Of a stretch of 64,000 bases of DNA, positions 52,652 through 64,000 are shown piece after piece. The notes under the pieces were generated by a model. That model saw only the letters and a list, made by a program, of their open reading frames with translations, ran no database searches and had not been told where the DNA came from. Both the position numbers and the translations under genes were made by a program. The stretch comes from Actinomycetes bacterium. GTDB lineage: Bacteria; Actinomycetota; Thermoleophilia; RBG-16-64-13. The DNA lies in NCBI GenBank assembly GCA_024637035.1, contig JAGXFW010000025.1, positions 11,626-75,625 on the forward strand. Direction: 5' to 3'. The first letter of the stretch is position 1; the number at the start of each line of letters is the position of its first letter.

Positions 52652-54007
52652 CTATCCTACCTTCGGCAGGCGAGCCTGAGCTTCGAGCACCTTCTCTTCC
52701 GGATACGCGTAGTCCTGAAGGTTGCCCGAGAGGTAGTTGTCGTAGGCGGCCATATCGAAGTGGCCGTGACCGCTCAGGTTGAACAGGATGGTCTTGGCTT
52801 CGCCGGACTGCTTGCACTGCTCGGCGGCGTTGACCACACTGGCGAGAGCGTGCGAGCTCTCGGGGGCCGGGATGATGCCCTCGGTGCGAGCGAACTGCAC
52901 GGCGGCCTTGAAGCAGGCGTTCTGCGTGTAGGCCTCAGCTTCGATCAAGCCGAGATCGAGAGCATGGGACACCATCGGAGCCATACCGTGGTAGCGCAGG
53001 CCACCGGCGTGGATGCCGGCCGGCACGAAGTCGTGACCCAGAGTGTGCATCTTGAGCAGCGGCGTCAACATGCCGACGTCGCCGAAGTCGTAGGCGTAGA
53101 TGCCCTTGGTGAGGCTCGGACAGGCCGCGGGCTCGACCGCGATGATGCGGGTCTCTTTGCCCTCACGGATCTTCTTGCCGATGAACGGGAAGCTGATGCC
53201 GGCGAAGTTGGAGCCACCGCCCGCGCACCCGATGACGATGTCGGGGTATACGCCGGCGTCGGCACACTGCTCCATGGCTTCCTGACCTATGACGGTCTGG
53301 TGGTGCATCACGTGGTTGAGCACGCTACCAAGAGAGTAGTGGGTGTCGTCGTTCGTGGCGGCCACTTCGACGGCCTCGCTGATGGCCATACCGAGGGAGC
53401 CGGTGGAGTCGGGATCGTTGGCCAGGAAGGCGCGGCCGGCGTTGGTGGTGTCCGACGGGCTCGGGATCACTTCCGCGCCCCAGGTATGGATCATGCTGCG
53501 CCGGTACGGCTTCTGCTGGTAGGAGATCTTCACCATGTAGACCAAGAGCTCCATGCCGAACATCTGGCAGGCCATAGAGAGCGCGGAGCCCCACTGGCCG
53601 GCGCCGGTCTCGGTGGTCAGCTTGGTGATGCCTTCCTGCTTGTTGTAGTACGCCTGCGGCACCGAAGTATTGGGCTTGTGCGAACCGGCCGGGCTGACGC
53701 CTTCATACTTGAAGAAGATCTTCGCCGGGGTGTCGAGTGCCTTCTCCCAGTGGGGCGCCCGGTACAGCGGCGTGGGCCTCCACAGCTTGTAGATGTCCTG
53801 CACTTCTTCCGGGATCTCGATGTAGGGCTCCGGGGTCATCTCCTGCATGATCAACGCCATCGGGAAGAGAGGCGCTAGATCGTCAGGTCCAGCCGGCTGC
53901 AGCGTGCCTGGATGCAACGGCGGCGGCAATGGGGCCGGGAAATCCGAGTTCAGGTTGTACCAGGACGTCGGCATACGGTCTTCCGACAAGAAGTACTTCG
54001 TCGCCAT
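52652..54007 (-). CDS. trpB2: TrpB-like PLP-dependent enzyme (tryptophan synthase beta chain 2 family, TrpB2)
   Basis: PLP-Lys context (GSHKPNT) and a Gly-rich PLP phosphate loop ([11 protein letters not shown]). 451 aa, typical of TrpB2. Confidence 0.85.
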
Positions 54008-54112: not shown

Positions 54113-54457
54113 CGGGGTAGATTGGCTTTTGCAGGCAAAATCCTTCACAAGCCGGGTTCGACGGTGCGCGAAATGACTCGTCGCGATGGGCTTATTGACC
54201 GCCGGGCCGGTATCTCGGGTGCGCCCGGGCGGGCGTGTGCTGGCGCGTCGTCGACCGGTCGCCCGAACGGTCCGTCCTTGAATGTCCGCGGAGGGTGCAG
54301 TCGGAGTTGACCCGAGACAAGGTTCTAGACACAGCGCCCGGCAGCCGTATACGATGCGCCTCAAAGCTGAAACTTGGCAAGCAGACCGAACAGTCAGCCA
54401 GCAGTTCGGTGCCTGAGCCGCAGGTTCCAGCCCACACGCAGACACCGGGAGGGGCAA

Positions 54458-57400
54458 TGAGGCAGAGGGGTCTCGGCAGGTGTGTCTCCGTCGCTGTGTT
54501 GCTCGTAGCGCTTGGCGCTCTTACCCTCTTCCTCGGTGGTCCAATGACACCGGCTCTGGGTGTGTCTCCATCCATTTCCACAGAGCCGGGCGTGGTACGC
54601 GAACTCGTTGAAAAGCGTACGGCCAACTCTCAGACCTTCCTGCTTTCCGACGGGCGGCTGCGCGCGGTCGTCAGCAGCGGCTTCGTCAACTACCGCGACG
54701 AGAGTGGCGCCTGGCGGCAGATAGACACACGTCTGGTGGCTGGCACGAGGTCCGGCGACTACGTATCCGCCGCGACCCCGATCGAGGTCACCGCAGCTTC
54801 AGACTCGCCGGCTCGTGTCTCTCTCGCCTATCAGGACTCCACCATCACCCTCGGTCCGAAGAACGCCCGTCCCGCACAGTTCAGCGTGCGGGATTCCGTT
54901 GCCACCTATCGCGGCATCGCGACGGACGCCGACCTCACCTACCAGGTCCTCGGCGACGGCGTGAAGGAGACCATCGTCCTGCGCTCTCCCAAGGCGGCGA
55001 ACACCTACACCTTCACCATCTCCCACCCGGGCCTGCTCCTGATGCAGGATGAGACGACCGGGCAGTGGGGGCTCCGCACCGCCATGGAGCACGACCCGCT
55101 CTTCGTCCTCGGTGGCTTGAACGTCGCCGACTCCTCAGTGAACGAAGCCGGCGATCCCGCCTACTCTGATGAGGCCGAGATGCGGGTGGAGCCGGGCACC
55201 GAGGAGAGCACCGTCACCTACACCGTCCCGCGCTCCTGGCTCGACGACAAGGAGCGCGTCTACCCGGTCCTCATCGACCCCACGGTCACCGCTGTCGCCT
55301 CCACGGGGGACACATTCGTATCGAGCGCCTCCCCCAACACCAACTACGGGTCCGATGACGACATGCACGTCGGGTATTACGACTCGACCACGGGTGACTG
55401 TCGTGGCCTCGTTCGGTTCGACCTCCCTGCCGACCTCCTCACCGGCGGCTACGTGCAGAGCGCCGATCTCTACCTGCGCCAGAACTGGCAGTCGGTGCTC
55501 GCCCCGAGCGTGGCCCGTGTGGGAGCCATCGACCGGGCCTGGAGCGAATCGAGCACCTACAACTCCCTCGGTGGCCACTACATCATCGAGGCCAAGGAGG
55601 TCGCCACCGTCGCGGCCCGGGCCCAGGACCTGCATTTCGACTTCACCCAGATGGTGCAACGGTGGGCCACCGGCAAGTACGTGAACCACGGGTTCGTGAT
55701 CTACCAGGAGTGGACCGAAGGGCAGACCTACTGGCGGAAGATCCTCAGCAAGGAGCACCCGACCTCGAGTTACAGACCCAAGCTCACCATCACCTACACC
55801 GCGCCACTCGACGTGACCGCTTCCCCGTTCAACGCGAAAGGAGACGGCACGACCGATGACACCGCGGCCATACAGGGCGCCATCAACGCCGCCGACCCGA
55901 ACGGCGGAGTCGTCTACTTTCCGAGCGGCACGTACAAGGTGGGCGGCTTGAACCTCGCCAAGAGCAACGTCGTACTCCGTGGTCTGGGCACCGCGAGCGT
56001 GCTCGTGCCCGCGTCCGCGGCGCAAGGTCATCTTATCCAGGTCGGTGGGGCGACCGCCGTCACGAACGTGCTCGTCGAGAACCTCAACCTGCGCCTCCCC
56101 CCGTCGGGCGGCGGGGTGAGTGTGGCGGGCGCGGGCGGAGGCAGCAACGTGCGCATCCGTAACAACACCTTCTCCGGAGGCAACGACTCGGCGACCACTC
56201 ACGCCCTTGGTGTGGCCGCGAACTTCACCTCAGTCGAGGTCACCGACAATGACTTGGCGCTGGTCACTTCGGTGCCGCTCGACATCGAAGGGGACTCCGG
56301 GTCTGAGCGCATCGTGGCCCGGAACACGATGCCAACCGCCCCCTACCAGGCCGACCTCATGTGGGGCATCGACCGCTACCAGACGGCCATCCGCCTCTCT
56401 CAAGCCGCCTTCCCCACCTGGGCAGAAGGAGTGGTGCTGGTCTCTGGTGAGAACTACCCAGACGCGCTCTCCGCAGGTCCCCTAGCAGCGGCCTACGACG
56501 GGCCCACCCTGCTCACGCAAGCGGCTTCACTCAATGTGGGCACCAAAGCGGAGTTGCAGCGCTTGAACCCAAGTCGGGTCTTCGTCGTCGGTCTCGGCAC
56601 CTCAATATCGGACGCGGTCACACACGCCCTGCCCTCAGCCCAGGTCACTCGGCTCGCGGGCCCCAGTCGGTACGACACAGCCGCCTTGGTGGCCGCAGAG
56701 GTCAAGACCAAGCGCTCCCTCGACGGCCTCAGCGTCACCAAGGTGGTCATCGTCCCCGGTGACGGCTACCCCGATGGACTCACCTCTGGACCCATGGCGG
56801 CCAAGAACGGCTGGCCCATCCTCCTCACCCCGAAAGCCGGGCCCATACCCGCGGCCACGCAGACCGCCTATCAGACTACCCTCGGCGTGAACCAGGCCGT
56901 CGTGGTGGGCGTGAACGCCGGCGTGGCTATCCCCGGCATCGAAAGTCACCGCATCAACGGTGCCGACGTCTTTGCGACCTCCAGTCTCGTGGCTCAGTAT
57001 GCCGTGCAGAACGGCTCCTCCTATGCCCACACCGCGCTTGCCACCGGCCTCAACTTCCCTGATGCTCTGGCCGCAGGCTCCTACCTCGGCGCCGACGGAG
57101 GCGTACTGCTCCTCACCAACGGGACCTCGATCGCTCCGGACTCGGTGGCGCTCCTCGAGGCGAACTACGCCGCCCTTGATACCCTCGACTACATCGCCCT
57201 CCCCTCGCTCTGGGAGGCCGATGAGAACTGCGGCGCTTGGCTGCCCGAGGCGCCGCAGCACACCTCGGTGGGCCTCGGTGCCTTCGCGCGACACGAAATG
57301 GGTGTCAGACTCGACCAAGGAACCCTGCAGGTGGCGGTCACTGACCTCGCCATCGACTCCTTCGGCCCCTCAGCCACGCTCACCCGGGTCTACTCCTCGT

Positions 57401-60400
57401 CGCGGACCTCGGAGCGGACGGCCGAGACCCTGGGCCTCCCGGGGTGGCGGTATACGTTCGAGCAGTCGCTCAGTTTCCCGAACGCCAACAGGATCGACTA
57501 CACCGATCCAACGGGCGACATCCACATTTTCGTGCGGAGCGGCCCCTCGACGGCCGATTGGTGGACACCGCCGGCGGGCTACGCCGCCAACCTCGGGAAA
57601 GACGGCAGCGCGTGGAAGCTGAAACTCCCCGGCGGGAACACCCTCGTCTTCGACTCCTCCGGCAGGTTGCTCTCCGAGGCCGACCCCAACGGCAACACCA
57701 CCACCTACAACTACACCGGGGGCGTTATCGACAGCATCAAGGCCGCGAACGCCCAGGTGATCGACGTGACCGTGAGCGCCGGCGCGTTGACCGGTGCTGT
57801 CTACACGACAGCCGACGGCGTGCGAGCAGTCGCATACGACAAGGCGGCGAAGACCGTGACCTACTTCCCAGGTGTCTCCGGCCTTGAGCACGTCGTGAAC
57901 TACACCTACTCGGGTGATCTACTCTCATCCATCAAGGCTCTCGACTACACTACGAGCAGCGATCCGGCGGCGGCGTTCACCTATTCGTCCGATCGCCTCA
58001 CCCAGTACAAGGCGCCCGACTACAACGCCACGACCAATACCGACGCCCGCACCGAGATCGCCTACGGCACGAAGACGGCCACACTCACCGCCTACGGGTT
58101 CGTGTATTCTGCCTCGGCCATCACCGGTGCCGCGAACACCCAGATCACCCAAACCTTCACCTGGAACGATTCCGGCACCATGGCCTCGAAGACGAATCCG
58201 AAGACGTCGTCCGAGACCACGACTGAGACCTGGTACTACCAATACGAGCCGAGGACCAACCTCCCGACTAAGGAGACCGACCCGCTCGGCAAGACCCGCA
58301 CCTGGACCTACAACCTGCGTGGGAACCAACTCACCGAGACCGACCAACTGAACCGGACCACCACCTACTCGTATCCTGACACCGACCCCGGCATCCCGCA
58401 CTACCTGCAGATCCGGGTAGCTGCGGACGGAGACGACGCACGCAAAGAGGGCCCGACTGTCTACGCGACCGGGTCCGCCTGGCAGGCCGTGGGGAAGGGC
58501 TCTTCGGTGCTCAGCGAAGGCTGGCGCTTCCGGAACGTGGACATCCCCAAAGGGGCCACGGTCCGCGACGCCCGGGTCCACCTCTACGCAGCGTACGACG
58601 CGAACGGCAATCCGGCTTCGGTGGTCTCGAAGATCGGTCTGGAGGCCGCGGACAACCCCGGGGCGTGGGCGCAGACGACGCACGAGCCCATCCTCAGCAA
58701 GCTGACCACCACCCAGGCGGCCTGGTCGGTAAGTGCCTGGAAGCAGGGGCAGTGGTACTCCTCACCCGATCTCTCCGCCTCGGTCACCGAGGTGATCGGG
58801 CGCACCGGCTGGGCGGCCGGGAACTCCATGGCCGTCATCTGGGCCGATAACGGGACCGCAAGCGGCAACTACCTGAAGTCGGGCGACTACTACGGCGGGA
58901 ACCCGGCGCTCTTCACCGTCTACTACACCGTCCCCTTCGACCCAAACCGCGACGAAGTGGGCGGGGTCACCGACCCCCTCGGGTCGAAGACTACGGTCAC
59001 CCGCGACAAGAACACCAACCCCACCGAGGTCACACGCACTCTGAACGCGACCCAGTCGGAGAGCACCAAGTACACCTACGAGGACGAAGCGGTCGGCTCC
59101 GCCACCTACAAGGGCGCTCTCACACTGGAGGAGAAGCTCATCAGCGGCACATGGGGCGGTGCCAACGCTGCCACTGCCACCGACTACGACACCGGCGGCT
59201 ACGCGACGAACGGACAACCGAACAAGGTGGTCCAGAAGACGGTGGCGCTGCAGGAAGGCCAGTCCTCTCCACCCGACCTCACCACCACCTACACCTTCGA
59301 CGACTTCGGCCAACTCGAGAAGGAGACGAACCCTGACGAGGTACTTGTGGCCGACAACACCTACGACAAAGCCGGTCGGCTGCTCATTTCGATCGGCCCC
59401 GCCTTCCCCTCCGGAGGGGGTCCTGCCACCCAGGTGAAGACCCACCACGTGTACAACGGCTGGGGGTTCGAGACCGAGACCTATCAGACTTCGACCGCCG
59501 ACCCCGGGGCCGCCAAGTACAACCGCTCGGTGGTCGCCTACGACCGTGCCGGTCGGGTCCTGACGGTCAAGGATCGCTTGAGTTCCACGACGTTGGTGCG
59601 TATACGCACCAACATCTACGACGGCCGAGGACTCCTCATCTCCACCGACGACACCACGGTCAGCGACCTTGACGCGCGCACCGCGTACGACGCCCGGGGC
59701 CAGGTGGTCGCGTCGTGGGCGGGCGGCGCCTGCACGGGAACCGACTATGAGATCGCCAAGGCCACCCGCTACCTCGATGGAACCACCCCCGCCTATGACG
59801 CTCTCGGTCGAGTGACAAAGAGCGCTCCCCCGGGCGACAACCCCACCACCTTCACCTACTACGACGACGGGCGCCTTCACACCAGGGTGCTGCCCGACGG
59901 CTCGCAGGAGACCTACACCTACGACGCCGGCGGCAACCTCACGCAGACCGTCTCCACCAAGGACGGCACGAGCTCGGCCACCTACGACCTCGGCGGGCGC
60001 CGCCTGACCCAGACGAGCGCCGCCGGCCTCACCACGAGCTTCGCCTACGATCTCCTCTCCCGGATCACGAGCGCCGGCGCGGGTCCGGCCGCCTCCACCT
60101 ACGCTTACAACACCCTCGGCTGGCAACTACGGGTGACCGACGCCGACGGCTTTGCGACGGTCCGCGTCTTCGACAAACTCGGACGCACGATCTCGGAGAC
60201 GACCGCCGATGAGACCACCACCTCGACCTACGACCCCGCCGGACACCTCACGAAGCAGGTGGATCATCAAGGCCGCTGGCGGGAGCTCTCCTATGACCTC
60301 ATGGGGCGGGTGACGCGGGATCTGCAAACCTTGTCTGGCACCCCACGGGTCTCGGTGAAGGACACCACCCTCACCTACGACTCGCTCGGGCGGGTGCTCA

Positions 60401-62394
60401 CCACCTCCGACGCCGTTCGCAATCTGGGGCACACCCTGACCTACCCGGAGAACACCCCCGCCCCCACCACCGACCAGGCCGTGGTGGGCACCACAGGCAC
60501 CGACGCCGTCCAGACCACCCTCACCGTGGCTGCTGACGGATACGAGACCAGCCGAGCGAGCGAAATCTACAGCAACCCCGCACTCCCCACCATCACCCGC
60601 ACGGTGGGCCCGCGCGACACCGCGCACCGTCCGACCCAAGTCACCACCCAGACCGGCGCCTCCACCTCCATCTCTGCCCAGTACTCCTACGACACCGCCG
60701 GACGCCTGAAGCGTCAATGGGGTCCCACGGGCGCCGCGGGCTCCGGCTACCTCGCAGGTGCCGCCACCACTGACGCCTATACCTACCACCCGACCACAGG
60801 CCTAAAGACCGGCGAGAACCTCCGCCTCCAGAGCGTAGGCACGGCCGGGGTCCTCACCGCCTCCTACACCTACACGACCGCCGGCCGCCTGGCGACCGCC
60901 ACCGTGAACGGCGTCTCCGACACCACCACCTTCGACCCAGCCGGGAACCTCACCAGCTTCACCGGCACCACCCTCACCTATCAAGAGAACCGCCTGGCCA
61001 CCACCGTCACCGGTGGCGCCACCACCTACTACACCTACGATGCCGGGAAGCGCTGGCGTCTCTCCCAAGGCACGACCACCAACACGAGCGACCCGAACCG
61101 CATCCGCTACACCTACACGGCCCAAGGGCGCTTGGCCACCTACCTGAACCCGAGTACCTCCGTCTCCGCCGCCTACACCTACGACCAAGAGGGCCAGCGC
61201 ACGCAGTCTGCGGTGACCATAGGTTCGCAGACCACCGCCACCGACTTCTCCTACCAGGGACTCCAGCTGCAGAGCCTGGGAGCCACACAAAGCGGCGGCA
61301 CCAACCCCACCTCCTGGAAGGTCACCTACCTCTACGACGAGCAGGGCCGCCCCTACGGCGGTGTCTACCGGAGCCCGAAGGAGAGCATCGCCCCTCTATA
61401 CTTCGGCATCCTGACGAGTGACCGAGGCGACATCGTCTCCCTCCTCGATGCAAACGGCACCCCCTTCGCCGCCTATCGCTACGACGCCTGGGGCAAGCCC
61501 ACCGGCACGGGGAACGTCGGGACCGGCGTGTGGAGCAAGTCCACGAGTCTCATCTCCGCCGGAGTCGCAAGCGCCATCGCGACCCGACAGATCCTCCGCT
61601 ACGCGGGCTACGCTTTCGACCAAGAGAGTTCCCTCTACTACCTCTCCTCCCGGAGCTACGACCCCGTCACCCGACAGTTCCTCTCCAAGGACCTCTCCCG
61701 CAACGACGGGGAAGAGAGTGCCTACCAGTACTGCGGAGGGAACCCGGTGGCGGGGGTGGATCCTACGGGGTATCGGATGGACGAGTTCGCAACGTCGCAG
61801 GAGCGGCAGGCGGCGGAGATCTCCCGGGGTAGGATCAAGAAGGCACAGAGGGCGTCGAAGGCACGGGTGCAGCGGCGGAGATTGGACGAGAAGGGCCCCA
61901 AGCTACCTACATCTGCTGGAAACCGATTGCGGGGCCTTGGAGTTGCGCTCGATTTATTCACGGGATACGGTTCGCGAGACCGTGTGTACAGCCCATCGTC
62001 CCCCGAGACCAATGAGATGCGACATGCCTGGGGCCGAGACATGCGCGATGCCTTCGCTAAGGAAGACTACCGGTCTACCAGGTGGAAGTCGGGTCATGTT
62101 ACGCCCTTAGTGATGCAGTTGGCCTCTGGTCCCGACATCTTCAACACCATGAGCCAGGCCGGCGGTGTCTCGGGTACTGTAGCGCCCTTACCGGATGGGA
62201 GGGCCAAGTTCGAAATCACAAACGAGGCCGGGAGGGAGTCGTTCTTCAATTTCATCAACCTACCGCTTGAGCTGTTGGTGCTCGGTTCAGCCAACAGCCC
62301 AGTCATCTCGAATGCTGACAAGGAAGAGGGTCCCTGGAGCACGATACGGCAGACCTTCTACTGGTATGAGTCCATGGAGGACCTTACAAGATGA
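54458..62394 (+). CDS. RHS/YD-repeat polymorphic toxin with cell-wall-anchoring N-terminal domains and a C-terminal toxin domain of unknown family
   Basis: Start refined to ATG 54458 (GGGAGGGG RBS), followed by a signal peptide (MRQRGLGRCVSVAVLLVALGALTLFLGGPMTPALG). N-terminal domains: a DNRLRE-like domain (DGRLRA ... NTNYGSDDDMHVGYY ... LVRFDL), a pectate-lyase-like beta-helix (GDGTTDDTAAIQGAINAA ... VYFPSGTY) and three CWB2 repeats (YQTAIRLSQAAF...; SRYDTAALVAAEV...). Repeat region: many YD repeats (YTYDAGGNLTQ etc.) and an RHS core ending at YDPVTRQFLSKDLSRNDGEESAYQYCGGNPVAGVDPTGY. The final tip is a roughly 200-aa unclassified domain. Confidence 0.9.
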
Positions 62395-62864
62395 CCAAGA
62401 GCAGTCGTCGTGTGCGGGGATGCGGAACGACTGCCATCGCGGTCGCGCTGGCCCTGATCGGGTTGACGGCAGCATTGATGTGGCCGTTCCCAGTCTCCGA
62501 CGGCCATCCCTCCGGCCTTGTCGGGACATGGAAAGGAGAGGGCGTGCCGTTTGAGATGAGATCTTCGAGTGAAGACAACGAATTTCAAGTGGTGCTCATT
62601 TTGGCTCCCGACGGGTCGAGCCACGAGGAAATCTGGCGGGCTGGTCGCTTGGAACGGACTCTCTCCGGGAGTTGGGTCGTCGAAGGTGGTCGTCTGCGGG
62701 TCACGTTCATCGACCCAACACTTGACGACGTGCAGATGGAGCCACCGGCTCGGATGTCGGTCCCCGTCTACTGGGGCCTCAGCCAAGGTACCTACATTGA
62801 TGGCGGTGGCCATGGGGATGCCGGCATCGCCTTGCACAAGACGTCCTCCGAGGTCTCCCGATGA
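62391..62864 (+). CDS. Putative cognate immunity protein (membrane-anchored, lipocalin-like)
   Basis: Start overlaps the toxin stop as ATGA. N-terminal signal anchor/TM (TAIAVALALIGLTAALMW) and GTWKGEG...RVTF. Confidence 0.55.
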   Translation: MTKSSRRVRGCGTTAIAVALALIGLTAALMWPFPVSDGHPSGLVGTWKGEGVPFEMRSSSEDNEFQVVLILAPDGSSHEEIWRAGRLERTLSGSWVVEGGRLRVTFIDPTLDDVQMEPPARMSVPVYWGLSQGTYIDGGGHGDAGIALHKTSSEVSR

Positions 62865-62994
62865 GTAGTCGAGTGGTGGGTAGCGGAGGAGGGAGCGGCC
62901 GCTGCCATCGCAGAGACGATCAAGCCTTTGGGGGCTGATATCGTTGTACGCCTACGAGGGCCTGGCGCAAGGCTCGCTGCGGACCCCGAACACT

Positions 62995-64000
62995 ATGGGT
63001 TTGAACACGCAAAGCGGCGGCACCAACCCCACCTCCTGGAAGATCACCTACCTCTACGACGAACAGGGCCGCCCCTACGGCGGCGTCTACCGGAGCCCGA
63101 CAGAGAGCACCACCCCCCTCTACTTCGGCATCCTGACCTCAGACCGAGGCGACATCGTCTCCCTCCTCGACGCCGCCGGCGCCCCCTTCGCCGCCTACCG
63201 CTACGACGCCTGGGGCAAGCCCACCGGCACGGGGAACGTGGGGACCGGCGTCTGGAGTAAGAGCACCGGCCTCATCAGCCTGCAGGTGGCCACCGACCTG
63301 GCCAAGCGCCAACCCCTGCGCTACGCTTCCTACTGCTACGACGCAGAGAGCTCCCTCTACTACCTCTCCTCCCGGAGCTACGACCCCACAACGAGGCAGT
63401 TCCTCTCCAAGGACCTCTCCCGCAACGACGGGGAGGAGAGTGCGTATCAGTACTGTGGGGGGAACCCGGTGGCAGGGGTGGATCCTACTGGGTATCGGAT
63501 GGACGAGTTCGCGACGTCGCAGGAGCGGCAGGCGGCGGAGATCTCCCGGGGTAGGATCAAGAAGGCGCAGAGGGCATCGAAGGCACGGGCCATGTACAGA
63601 CGACTGAACCCAGGGGAGTCTGCAGCCAAGGAGGGCACCGCGTTCTCAGCGTCCCTATCCGTGCCCGGAGGCATGCGCGGACTGCTGAACCGCTTGTCCT
63701 TCGACCCCACTCCTTATCGCTACAGGGATAAAGGGTCGAACGTAGGGGTTCCTGGTGTTCCTATCGGCGTGAGCAACGGCACGGCCGTCAACTACGGGCC
63801 CACCGGGAGGGCGGTCTCCTCTGTTCCCTACGACGGCATGTACTTGGGCGGCCTACCCGCCTACTACGATCAGACTGGCTACGGTAGTGTTGAGCCCAAC
63901 ACCCGGTATGTGCAGGGTGGTTTGGGGTTCATCGTAGGTGCCAACTTCAGTATGAACCTCTCACGGATCGGCGACGCCTACTCAGCTGCCTATGAGCCCG
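62995..64000 (+). CDS. Orphan RHS C-terminal cassette (RHS core fragment plus alternative toxin tip), partial, continues beyond the window
   Basis: A frame open from 62884 to the window end that is not in the ORF track. It encodes GTNPTSWKITYLYDEQGRPYGGVYRSP ... YYLSSRSYDPTTRQFLSKDL...GGNPVAGVDPTGYRMDEFATSQERQAAEISRGRIKKAQRASKAR, which is near-identical to residues about 2279-2470 of the upstream RHS, followed by a divergent C-terminus. The first in-frame ATG is at 62995. Confidence 0.7.
   Translation, partial: MGLNTQSGGTNPTSWKITYLYDEQGRPYGGVYRSPTESTTPLYFGILTSDRGDIVSLLDAAGAPFAAYRYDAWGKPTGTGNVGTGVWSKSTGLISLQVATDLAKRQPLRYASYCYDAESSLYYLSSRSYDPTTRQFLSKDLSRNDGEESAYQYCGGNPVAGVDPTGYRMDEFATSQERQAAEISRGRIKKAQRASKARAMYRRLNPGESAAKEGTAFSASLSVPGGMRGLLNRLSFDPTPYRYRDKGSNVGVPGVPIGVSNGTAVNYGPTGRAVSSVPYDGMYLGGLPAYYDQTGYGSVEPNTRYVQGGLGFIVGANFSMNLSRIGDAYSAAYEP

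Follow-up and report, generated by a model that had tools for sequence, protein, structure and literature searches.

A broad, unannotated Rhs tip family with exported or membrane-bound partners is predicted to act on the bacterial envelope

The WapA proteins of Bacillus subtilis and Streptococcus suis combine a signal peptide, wall-binding repeats, a YD/Rhs shell and an Rhs-associated core with a variable C-terminal tip. A small immunity gene lies directly downstream, and orphan cassettes occur. The WapA tips known to date are nucleases that act in the cytoplasm, and their immunity proteins are cytosolic. In Streptococcus intermedius, TelC is an LXG lipid II phosphatase that acts outside the membrane, and its immunity protein, TipC, is membrane-anchored and extracellular. 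Here, we analysed 64,000 nucleotides from an Actinomycetes bacterium of the Thermoleophilia (assembly GCA_024637035.1, contig JAGXFW010000025.1, positions 11,626 to 75,625 of the forward strand). This whole stretch is referred to as the window. It contains an Rhs/YD polymorphic toxin gene (54457..62394, + strand) followed by a candidate immunity gene. The locus shares each of the WapA features listed above. Unlike WapA, its tip belongs to an unannotated family and its immunity protein is predicted to be anchored outside the membrane. The carrier also differs in its wall anchor, which is CWB2, and in having DNRLRE and pectate-lyase-like domains. Our favoured interpretation is that the toxin attacks the envelope and that the exported immunity protein neutralises it on the outer side of the membrane.

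The tip follows a DPTGY motif that closes the Rhs-associated core (61759-61773, + strand) and runs RMDEF...SMEDLTR. Residues of the tip are numbered from V1, encoded at 61867. Searches of the window tip returned nothing in Pfam or NCBIfam at E ≤ 1, or among PDB sequences at E ≤ 10. Similarly, neither the family profile described below nor the members scanned matched a Pfam, PHROGs or PDB sequence family. Hence, the tip is unclassified, as a sequence-only reading of this DNA had proposed, and HNH/GHH, deaminase and ADP-ribosyltransferase (ART) families are not detectable in it. The same reading had noted that motifs of these families were absent. This agrees with the family alignment, in which no Cys or His is invariant, and with the list of structural matches, which holds no ART or nuclease fold. 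The sole recurring database match was a likeness between the ‘NGDGTVTF’ hairpin and repeats of CFSR and OspA. The match is short and was treated as spurious.

A word-indexed protein search with the tip returned linker matches only. Using phmmer against 1.84 billion representatives, 18 proteins were recovered at E<1e-3. The best of these (P0005, 3e-16) spans tip residues 28-174. A profile search identified 56 further proteins. A further scan found the family in 12 more genome loci, spread over at least 10 phyla. The genome loci derive from Desulfobulbus elongatus, Acidobacteriota, Nitrospira, Margulisiibacteriota, Elusimicrobia, Sericytochromatia, Planctomycetota, Bacteroidota and Cloacimonadota. 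Metagenomes yielded 80 further family loci. Scanning viral contigs yielded no relatives. A literature search returned no description of the family. Hence, the remote-homology search that the earlier reading had called for found a wide family, though one without annotation, and placed the tip in no known family. The implied uniqueness of the tip does not survive these searches. Judged by its sequence, the tip is no orphan and belongs to a broad, unannotated Rhs-tip family.

The family domain is approximately 140 amino acids long, has an α+β composition and occupies Rhs C-termini, directly after a DPxGL motif in most members. Its consensus is N..FL.DFL.G.G...R.YGP...ET.EM..SPGA..LR..F...QVGGF.G...NNGDGTVTF.I.N.AG..SFFYH...GPMRTI.QTF.WTE. 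HMMER searches and alignment assign positions 61918..62391 (+ strand) to a divergent member of this ‘QVGGF...Q.F.W.E’ family. The conserved polar columns (D29, R39, Y41, E50, R60, T94, Q97, N119, S125, Q162, W166 and E168) are all kept in the window. So are the invariant G, Y, G, T, Q, GG, N, S, Q, F and W, together with near-invariant D, R, M and E. The only departures from family columns are V98A, F101V and the His of FFYH. Two histidines had been put forward as catalytic candidates: H53 in HAWGRD (62023-62040) and H77 in KSGHVTP (62086-62106). Both fall in variable columns of the family alignment, which does not support that role.

We then turned to the partners of these toxins. The open reading frame (ORF) after the toxin was taken from each related locus, giving 60 distinct proteins. 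A single hidden Markov model (HMM) matches 51 of them at E<1e-3. This main partner family is β-rich, 130-170 amino acids long and carries the motif L.GTY...L.L..DGTF.Q.V...G.W.YD. Most members have an N-terminal hydrophobic segment, a lipobox or both. In diderm relatives, a periplasmic lipoprotein immunity gene lies directly downstream, as for the type VI secretion system effectors Tae/Tai, Tge/Tgi and Tle/Tli. Four of the 60 partners are multi-pass membrane proteins; three share one family and the fourth is a different multi-pass protein. The alternative type, found at L016 (4618-5085), L046 and L071 (and L086), is approximately 145 amino acids long with three hydrophobic helices and the motif WWE.RRIP.N...GEL.PGEDA.EP...N..YTLGW. 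The multi-pass proteins match no Pfam family. Toxins with multi-pass partners are 53-64% identical to toxins with lipoprotein-type partners. Hence, two unrelated, envelope-located immunity types serve closely related toxins. In total, 55 of the 60 partners are exported or membrane-integral, with no typical cytosolic immunity protein in the set.

The window partner fits this pattern. The candidate immunity gene (62391..62864, + strand) encodes 157 amino acids and its ATG overlaps the TGA of the toxin gene (ATGA). A GGAGG Shine-Dalgarno sequence lies inside the toxin gene (62376-62380, + strand), 10 nucleotides upstream of this ATG. Scanning for a promoter or terminator between the two genes identified no such site. 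The toxin and immunity genes are translationally coupled. By hydrophobicity, residues 15-33 form a transmembrane or signal-anchor segment (62433..62489, + strand). This is the only hydrophobic segment of the protein, with a mean Kyte-Doolittle (KD) value of 2.12, and four positive charges precede it. Because of these charges, an N-in, C-out topology is predicted, with the C-terminal domain facing outward. The earlier description of an N-terminally anchored immunity candidate is thus upheld.

A word-indexed search with the immunity protein recovered itself and one relative, 86% identical. Aligning the window ORF with the main partner family by hhalign gave a score of 29 (P=7e-5). In 200 column shuffles, the same comparison scored 11.4 ± 2.4 with a maximum of 19.4, so the real score is about 7 standard deviations higher. 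Furthermore, among the toxin relatives P0005 (locus L019), from the same Rhs lineage, is the closest, and its partner is anchored and homologous, with the sequence DGHP..LLGKW...VVLTLRADGSYE. The L019 partner bridges the window protein and the main family. On these profile and sequence comparisons, the window ORF is a distant member of the β-rich exported partner family. A putative ‘lipocalin-like’ fold, suggested previously for the immunity protein, is plausible. The window protein has no lipocalin-like family match above threshold. Sub-threshold Pfam matches of its relatives are DUF3994 (2.5e-4), GH43_C (2.9e-3), the NlpE N-terminal domain (0.037) and DUF4923 (0.22), and their PDB profile matches are weak. 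AlphaFold modelled the immunity protein as β-rich after the transmembrane helix. The model is unreliable, with a predicted local distance difference test (pLDDT) value of 44, because the alignment held two sequences only.

The partners are almost always exported or membrane-bound, which argues that the toxin acts on the envelope and not in the cytoplasm. The sequence-only reading had suggested this as a possibility from the window anchor. It is strongly reinforced by the partners in about 60 loci, which are nearly always exported lipoproteins or anchored proteins and, in four loci, multi-pass membrane proteins. Cysteines provide a second line of evidence. In 44 of 76 toxin domains, a cysteine in the ‘GGC’ region, in the middle of the domain, is accompanied by another in the C-terminal tail (Fisher p=3e-6). 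In those relatives, the sequence pattern suggests a disulfide and hence an oxidising compartment. The actinobacterial tips carry no cysteines. Several short relatives also carry their own Sec signal peptide, which we count in favour of extracytoplasmic action.

A cytoplasmic site of action is an alternative, with the tip serving, for instance, as a BECR-type ribonuclease (RNase). The exported immunity protein would then intercept it in the periplasm or wall before entry. Rhs and WapA tips characterised so far are mostly nucleases or NADases. In the prediction, helices come first and an antiparallel sheet comes next, an arrangement that resembles small RNase toxins. Moreover, conserved Arg, Tyr, Gln and Glu in the absence of His are known from some RelE and colicin E5-like enzymes. 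However, no nuclease fold or family was matched, and both the partner counts and the correlated cysteine pair point away from the cytoplasm. A census of polymorphic toxins in 2012 also noted lipoprotein immunity proteins as exceptional (PMC3482391). We consider a cytoplasmic target very unlikely.

We next considered the predicted structure of the tip. AlphaFold2, run with a 40-sequence alignment, gave a model with a mean pLDDT of 77 and a predicted template modelling score of 0.72. In the model, two long helices accompany a sheet of five strands, and an insertion specific to the window has low confidence. Comparing this model with PDB and BFVD using Foldseek identified no significant neighbour. 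The leading PDB entries repeatedly include colicin M, pectocin M1/M2 and PaeM. Hence, the tip could be a very distant colicin M-type enzyme that, working on the outer side of the membrane, cuts the pyrophosphate linkage in lipid II. Its anchored immunity protein would then correspond to Cmi and the multi-pass type to PmiA. Like the window family, the colicin M family (ColM, PaeM and the pectocins; PF14859) has immunity proteins that are either anchored and periplasmic or, with four helices, membrane-integral (PMC5821083). The conserved Arg, Tyr, Asp and Glu would also suit a pyrophosphate substrate.

Several results stand against this idea. The Foldseek matches are not significant (E 0.15-1.8, template modelling score 0.2-0.3, root-mean-square deviation about 10 Å). 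They also count as one weak match, because all of these proteins are homologous to one another. Aligning the family profile with ColM residues 120-271 by hhalign gave a probability of 0.1%. Pfam Colicin_M was not among the matches at E ≤ 1 of the 18+10 members scanned. In addition, the DxYDx5HR signature (PMC5821083) is absent from both the family consensus and the window. We therefore rejected membership of the colicin M family. No sequence or profile similarity was found, and delivery is by an Rhs shell where colicin M uses TonB-dependent import. A very distant relationship is quite unlikely.

With no invariant Cys or His in the family, Cys-His amidases are excluded, as are Zn or Ser-His hydrolases. 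Glycosidases are allowed, since the conserved catalytic candidates are Asp and Glu only. The Cys-His, lysozyme-type and Ser-Asp-His sets of Tae, Tge and Tle are not conserved in the family, and no fold match to a solved member was found. A peptidoglycan glycosidase or lytic transglycosylase of new fold could use a conserved Glu or Asp to cut glycan strands and so lyse neighbours. The exported immunity protein and the wall-bound delivery protein would fit. Conversely, lysozyme, SLT and glycoside-hydrolase families gave no match by sequence or fold, and multi-pass immunity proteins suit a membrane-associated substrate better than the sacculus. Such an enzyme is unlikely.

Alternatively, the tip could be non-enzymatic, either blocking an essential envelope protein by binding or perturbing the membrane directly. 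It has no recognisable catalytic motif, and the multi-pass immunity proteins recall those against pore-formers. However, the domain is not hydrophobic; the highest 19-residue KD mean is 1.33 and lies in the window-specific insertion. The twelve invariant, mostly polar columns shared across phyla instead resemble an active site. A non-enzymatic tip is thus highly improbable. Each specific chemistry is much less probable than action on the envelope overall.

For an envelope-acting toxin, we propose the following sequence of events. Briefly, the Rhs carrier would be exported by Sec and bound to the cell wall through CWB2. Cleavage at the DPTGY region would free the tip from the Rhs shell. The tip would then act outside the cytoplasmic membrane of a neighbour, where its target would be peptidoglycan, the lipid-linked precursor of peptidoglycan or the outer leaflet. 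The tip is probably an enzyme relying on the acidic residues D29, E50 and E168, with R39, Y41 and R60 holding an anionic substrate. A lipid-linked wall precursor or peptidoglycan would be the likeliest substrate. The producer would protect itself through the immunity domain which, tethered on the outer face of its own membrane, would bind and block the toxin. For a monoderm target, import is unnecessary, in keeping with delivery by a wall-anchored protein. This arrangement would resemble TelC/TipC, in that a Gram-positive toxin acts outside the membrane and meets an anchored extracellular immunity protein. Unlike the window tip, TelC is delivered by a type VII system via its LXG domain, and PDB searches found no structural or sequence match between the two.

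A more specific form of this proposal is that the family has a new enzyme fold and destroys an envelope building block from outside the membrane. The building block could be lipid II, another undecaprenyl-linked precursor or peptidoglycan. Three routes would deliver the enzyme: diderm Rhs proteins, small Sec-exported proteins (one from a prophage) and a wall-anchored Rhs protein of a Gram-positive actinobacterium. We offer this version tentatively. If true, the last of these routes would account for killing by a monoderm Rhs toxin that does not cross the target membrane.

Some observations weigh against an envelope-acting toxin with an exported antagonist. The window tip lacks cysteines and the near-invariant His of ‘FFYH’, and its insertion of approximately 25 residues is modelled with low confidence. 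Its layout of N-terminal helices and antiparallel sheet is also typical of cytoplasmic RNase toxins. With a plain HMM of the partner family, the window immunity ORF scores 4.6 bits, a value that shuffled sequences also reach. That the host is monoderm is an assumption drawn from its taxonomy. Finally, the toxicity of the tip and protection by the immunity protein are both predictions from sequence.

The toxin and immunity genes sit in a module with defined edges. A constant basic linker of 31 amino acids, RMDEFATSQERQAAEISRGRIKKAQRASKAR (RMDEF...SKAR; 61774..61866, + strand), follows DPTGY and is predicted to be helical. It is kept ahead of at least four unrelated tips: those of the window, an adjacent orphan cassette, P0001 and P0002. 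A second copy is encoded at 63496-63588. The linker may be a site of tip-exchange recombination or a constant pre-toxin element. Self-comparison identified a 580-nucleotide repeat spanning the end of the Rhs core and the linker. Its left copy (61284..61863, + strand) and right copy (63006..63585, + strand) are 87-90% identical. The repeat stops at the end of the linker and the linker precedes unrelated tips. Hence, the variable module is 61867-62864. Guanine-cytosine content is 0.57-0.60 in this module and 0.65-0.69 in the Rhs core. We conclude that 61867-62864 is a horizontally exchangeable toxin-immunity module.

Within the module, a short variable spacer, VQRRRLDEKGPKLPTSA (61867..61917, + strand), precedes the toxin domain and is modelled with low confidence. 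In L002, a variant of the pair on another contig, the spacer is of the P0001 type and the domain from GNRLRG onward matches that of the window. Hence, the toxin domain starts near GNRLRG, at 61918. The L002 and window pairs are 82-85% identical in amino acid sequence. Because L002 retains both frames intact, with a pN/pS of about 0.5, we conclude that the toxin and immunity genes are both real.

The orphan Rhs C-terminal cassette (62884..64000, + strand) has the same core end and linker. It continues past the end of the window, so that no immunity gene is seen for it. A possible internal ATG is at 62995. Its tip is unrelated and glycine-rich (…GVPGVPIGVSNGTAVNYGPTG…GGLGFIVGANF…), with a loose resemblance to the tips of P0001 and P0002. 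Thus, the locus has the hallmarks of an Rhs/YD system: a replaceable tip/immunity module of differing composition and an orphan cassette.

The carrier gene was delimited by choice of start codon and by Pfam and NCBIfam domains. A mechanical ORF call (54235..62394, + strand; 2719 codons) opens at GTG 54235 and ends with the stop at 62392-62394. The real start is likely ATG 54457 (MRQRGLGR...), because it is preceded by a strong ribosome-binding site, GGGAGGGG, and encodes a signal-peptide-like N-terminus, MRQRGLGRCVSVAVLLVALGALTLFLGG. Hence, the first 74 codons of the mechanical ORF (54235-54457) are probably untranslated. The protein contains DNRLRE, a pectate-lyase-like segment, three CWB2 wall-binding domains, DUF6531, RHS repeats and Rhs_assc_core. 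YD/RHS repeats match PF05593 at 1.5e-31 and TIGR01643 at 4.9e-23. The Rhs-associated core matches TIGR03696 at residues 2445-2512 (2.2e-16). From this domain set, including CWB2 and the Rhs shell and core, together with the signal-peptide-like N-terminus, we conclude that the carrier is a WapA-like Rhs protein bound to the cell wall. A TrpB-like pyridoxal phosphate enzyme is encoded directly upstream (52652-54007, − strand). Named members of its 90% cluster come from Thermoleophilia/Actinomycetota metagenome-assembled genomes, which assigns the carrier to an actinobacterium.

Other family members occur in varied settings. P0023, P0027, P0028, P0033, P0036, P0045 and the protein at L020 are approximately 200 amino acids long and have no Rhs shell. 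Each is built from a Sec signal peptide, the final motif of the Rhs core (RxYDP..GR..S.DP...DPxGLT) and, lastly, the toxin domain. At L020 (6001-7114; JGI 3300082211), the gene lies in a prophage-like setting between a phage tape-measure gene and an S24 repressor, and a lipoprotein partner follows it. The contig carrying L004 (4638-10782; ENA ERZ28564357) has the toxin-immunity pair twice, each copy adjoining an ISL3 transposase. These toxin genes are cut at the 5' end and begin at MGTGDSNRVYGP, within the G.G...R.Y motif. They look like toxins disrupted by insertion sequences, with the immunity genes retained. At L003 (2273-7265; ENA ERZ15185029), the family tip is an orphan cassette behind a full Rhs gene, which has a different tip and a membrane-anchored partner of 206 amino acids. 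Hence, envelope-type modules can stack within one locus.

Rhs toxin-immunity modules are well known. What is new here is a tip family present in at least 10 phyla without annotation, a solved relative or a detectable structural neighbour. The two unrelated immunity types directed against closely related toxins make it a tractable system for studying immunity evolution. If the toxin acts on the envelope, it would add a new fold to the few toxins that target the wall or its precursors; such toxins are possible starting points for antibacterials. How the wall-bound Rhs protein of a Gram-positive cell gets to its target would then also have a simple explanation.

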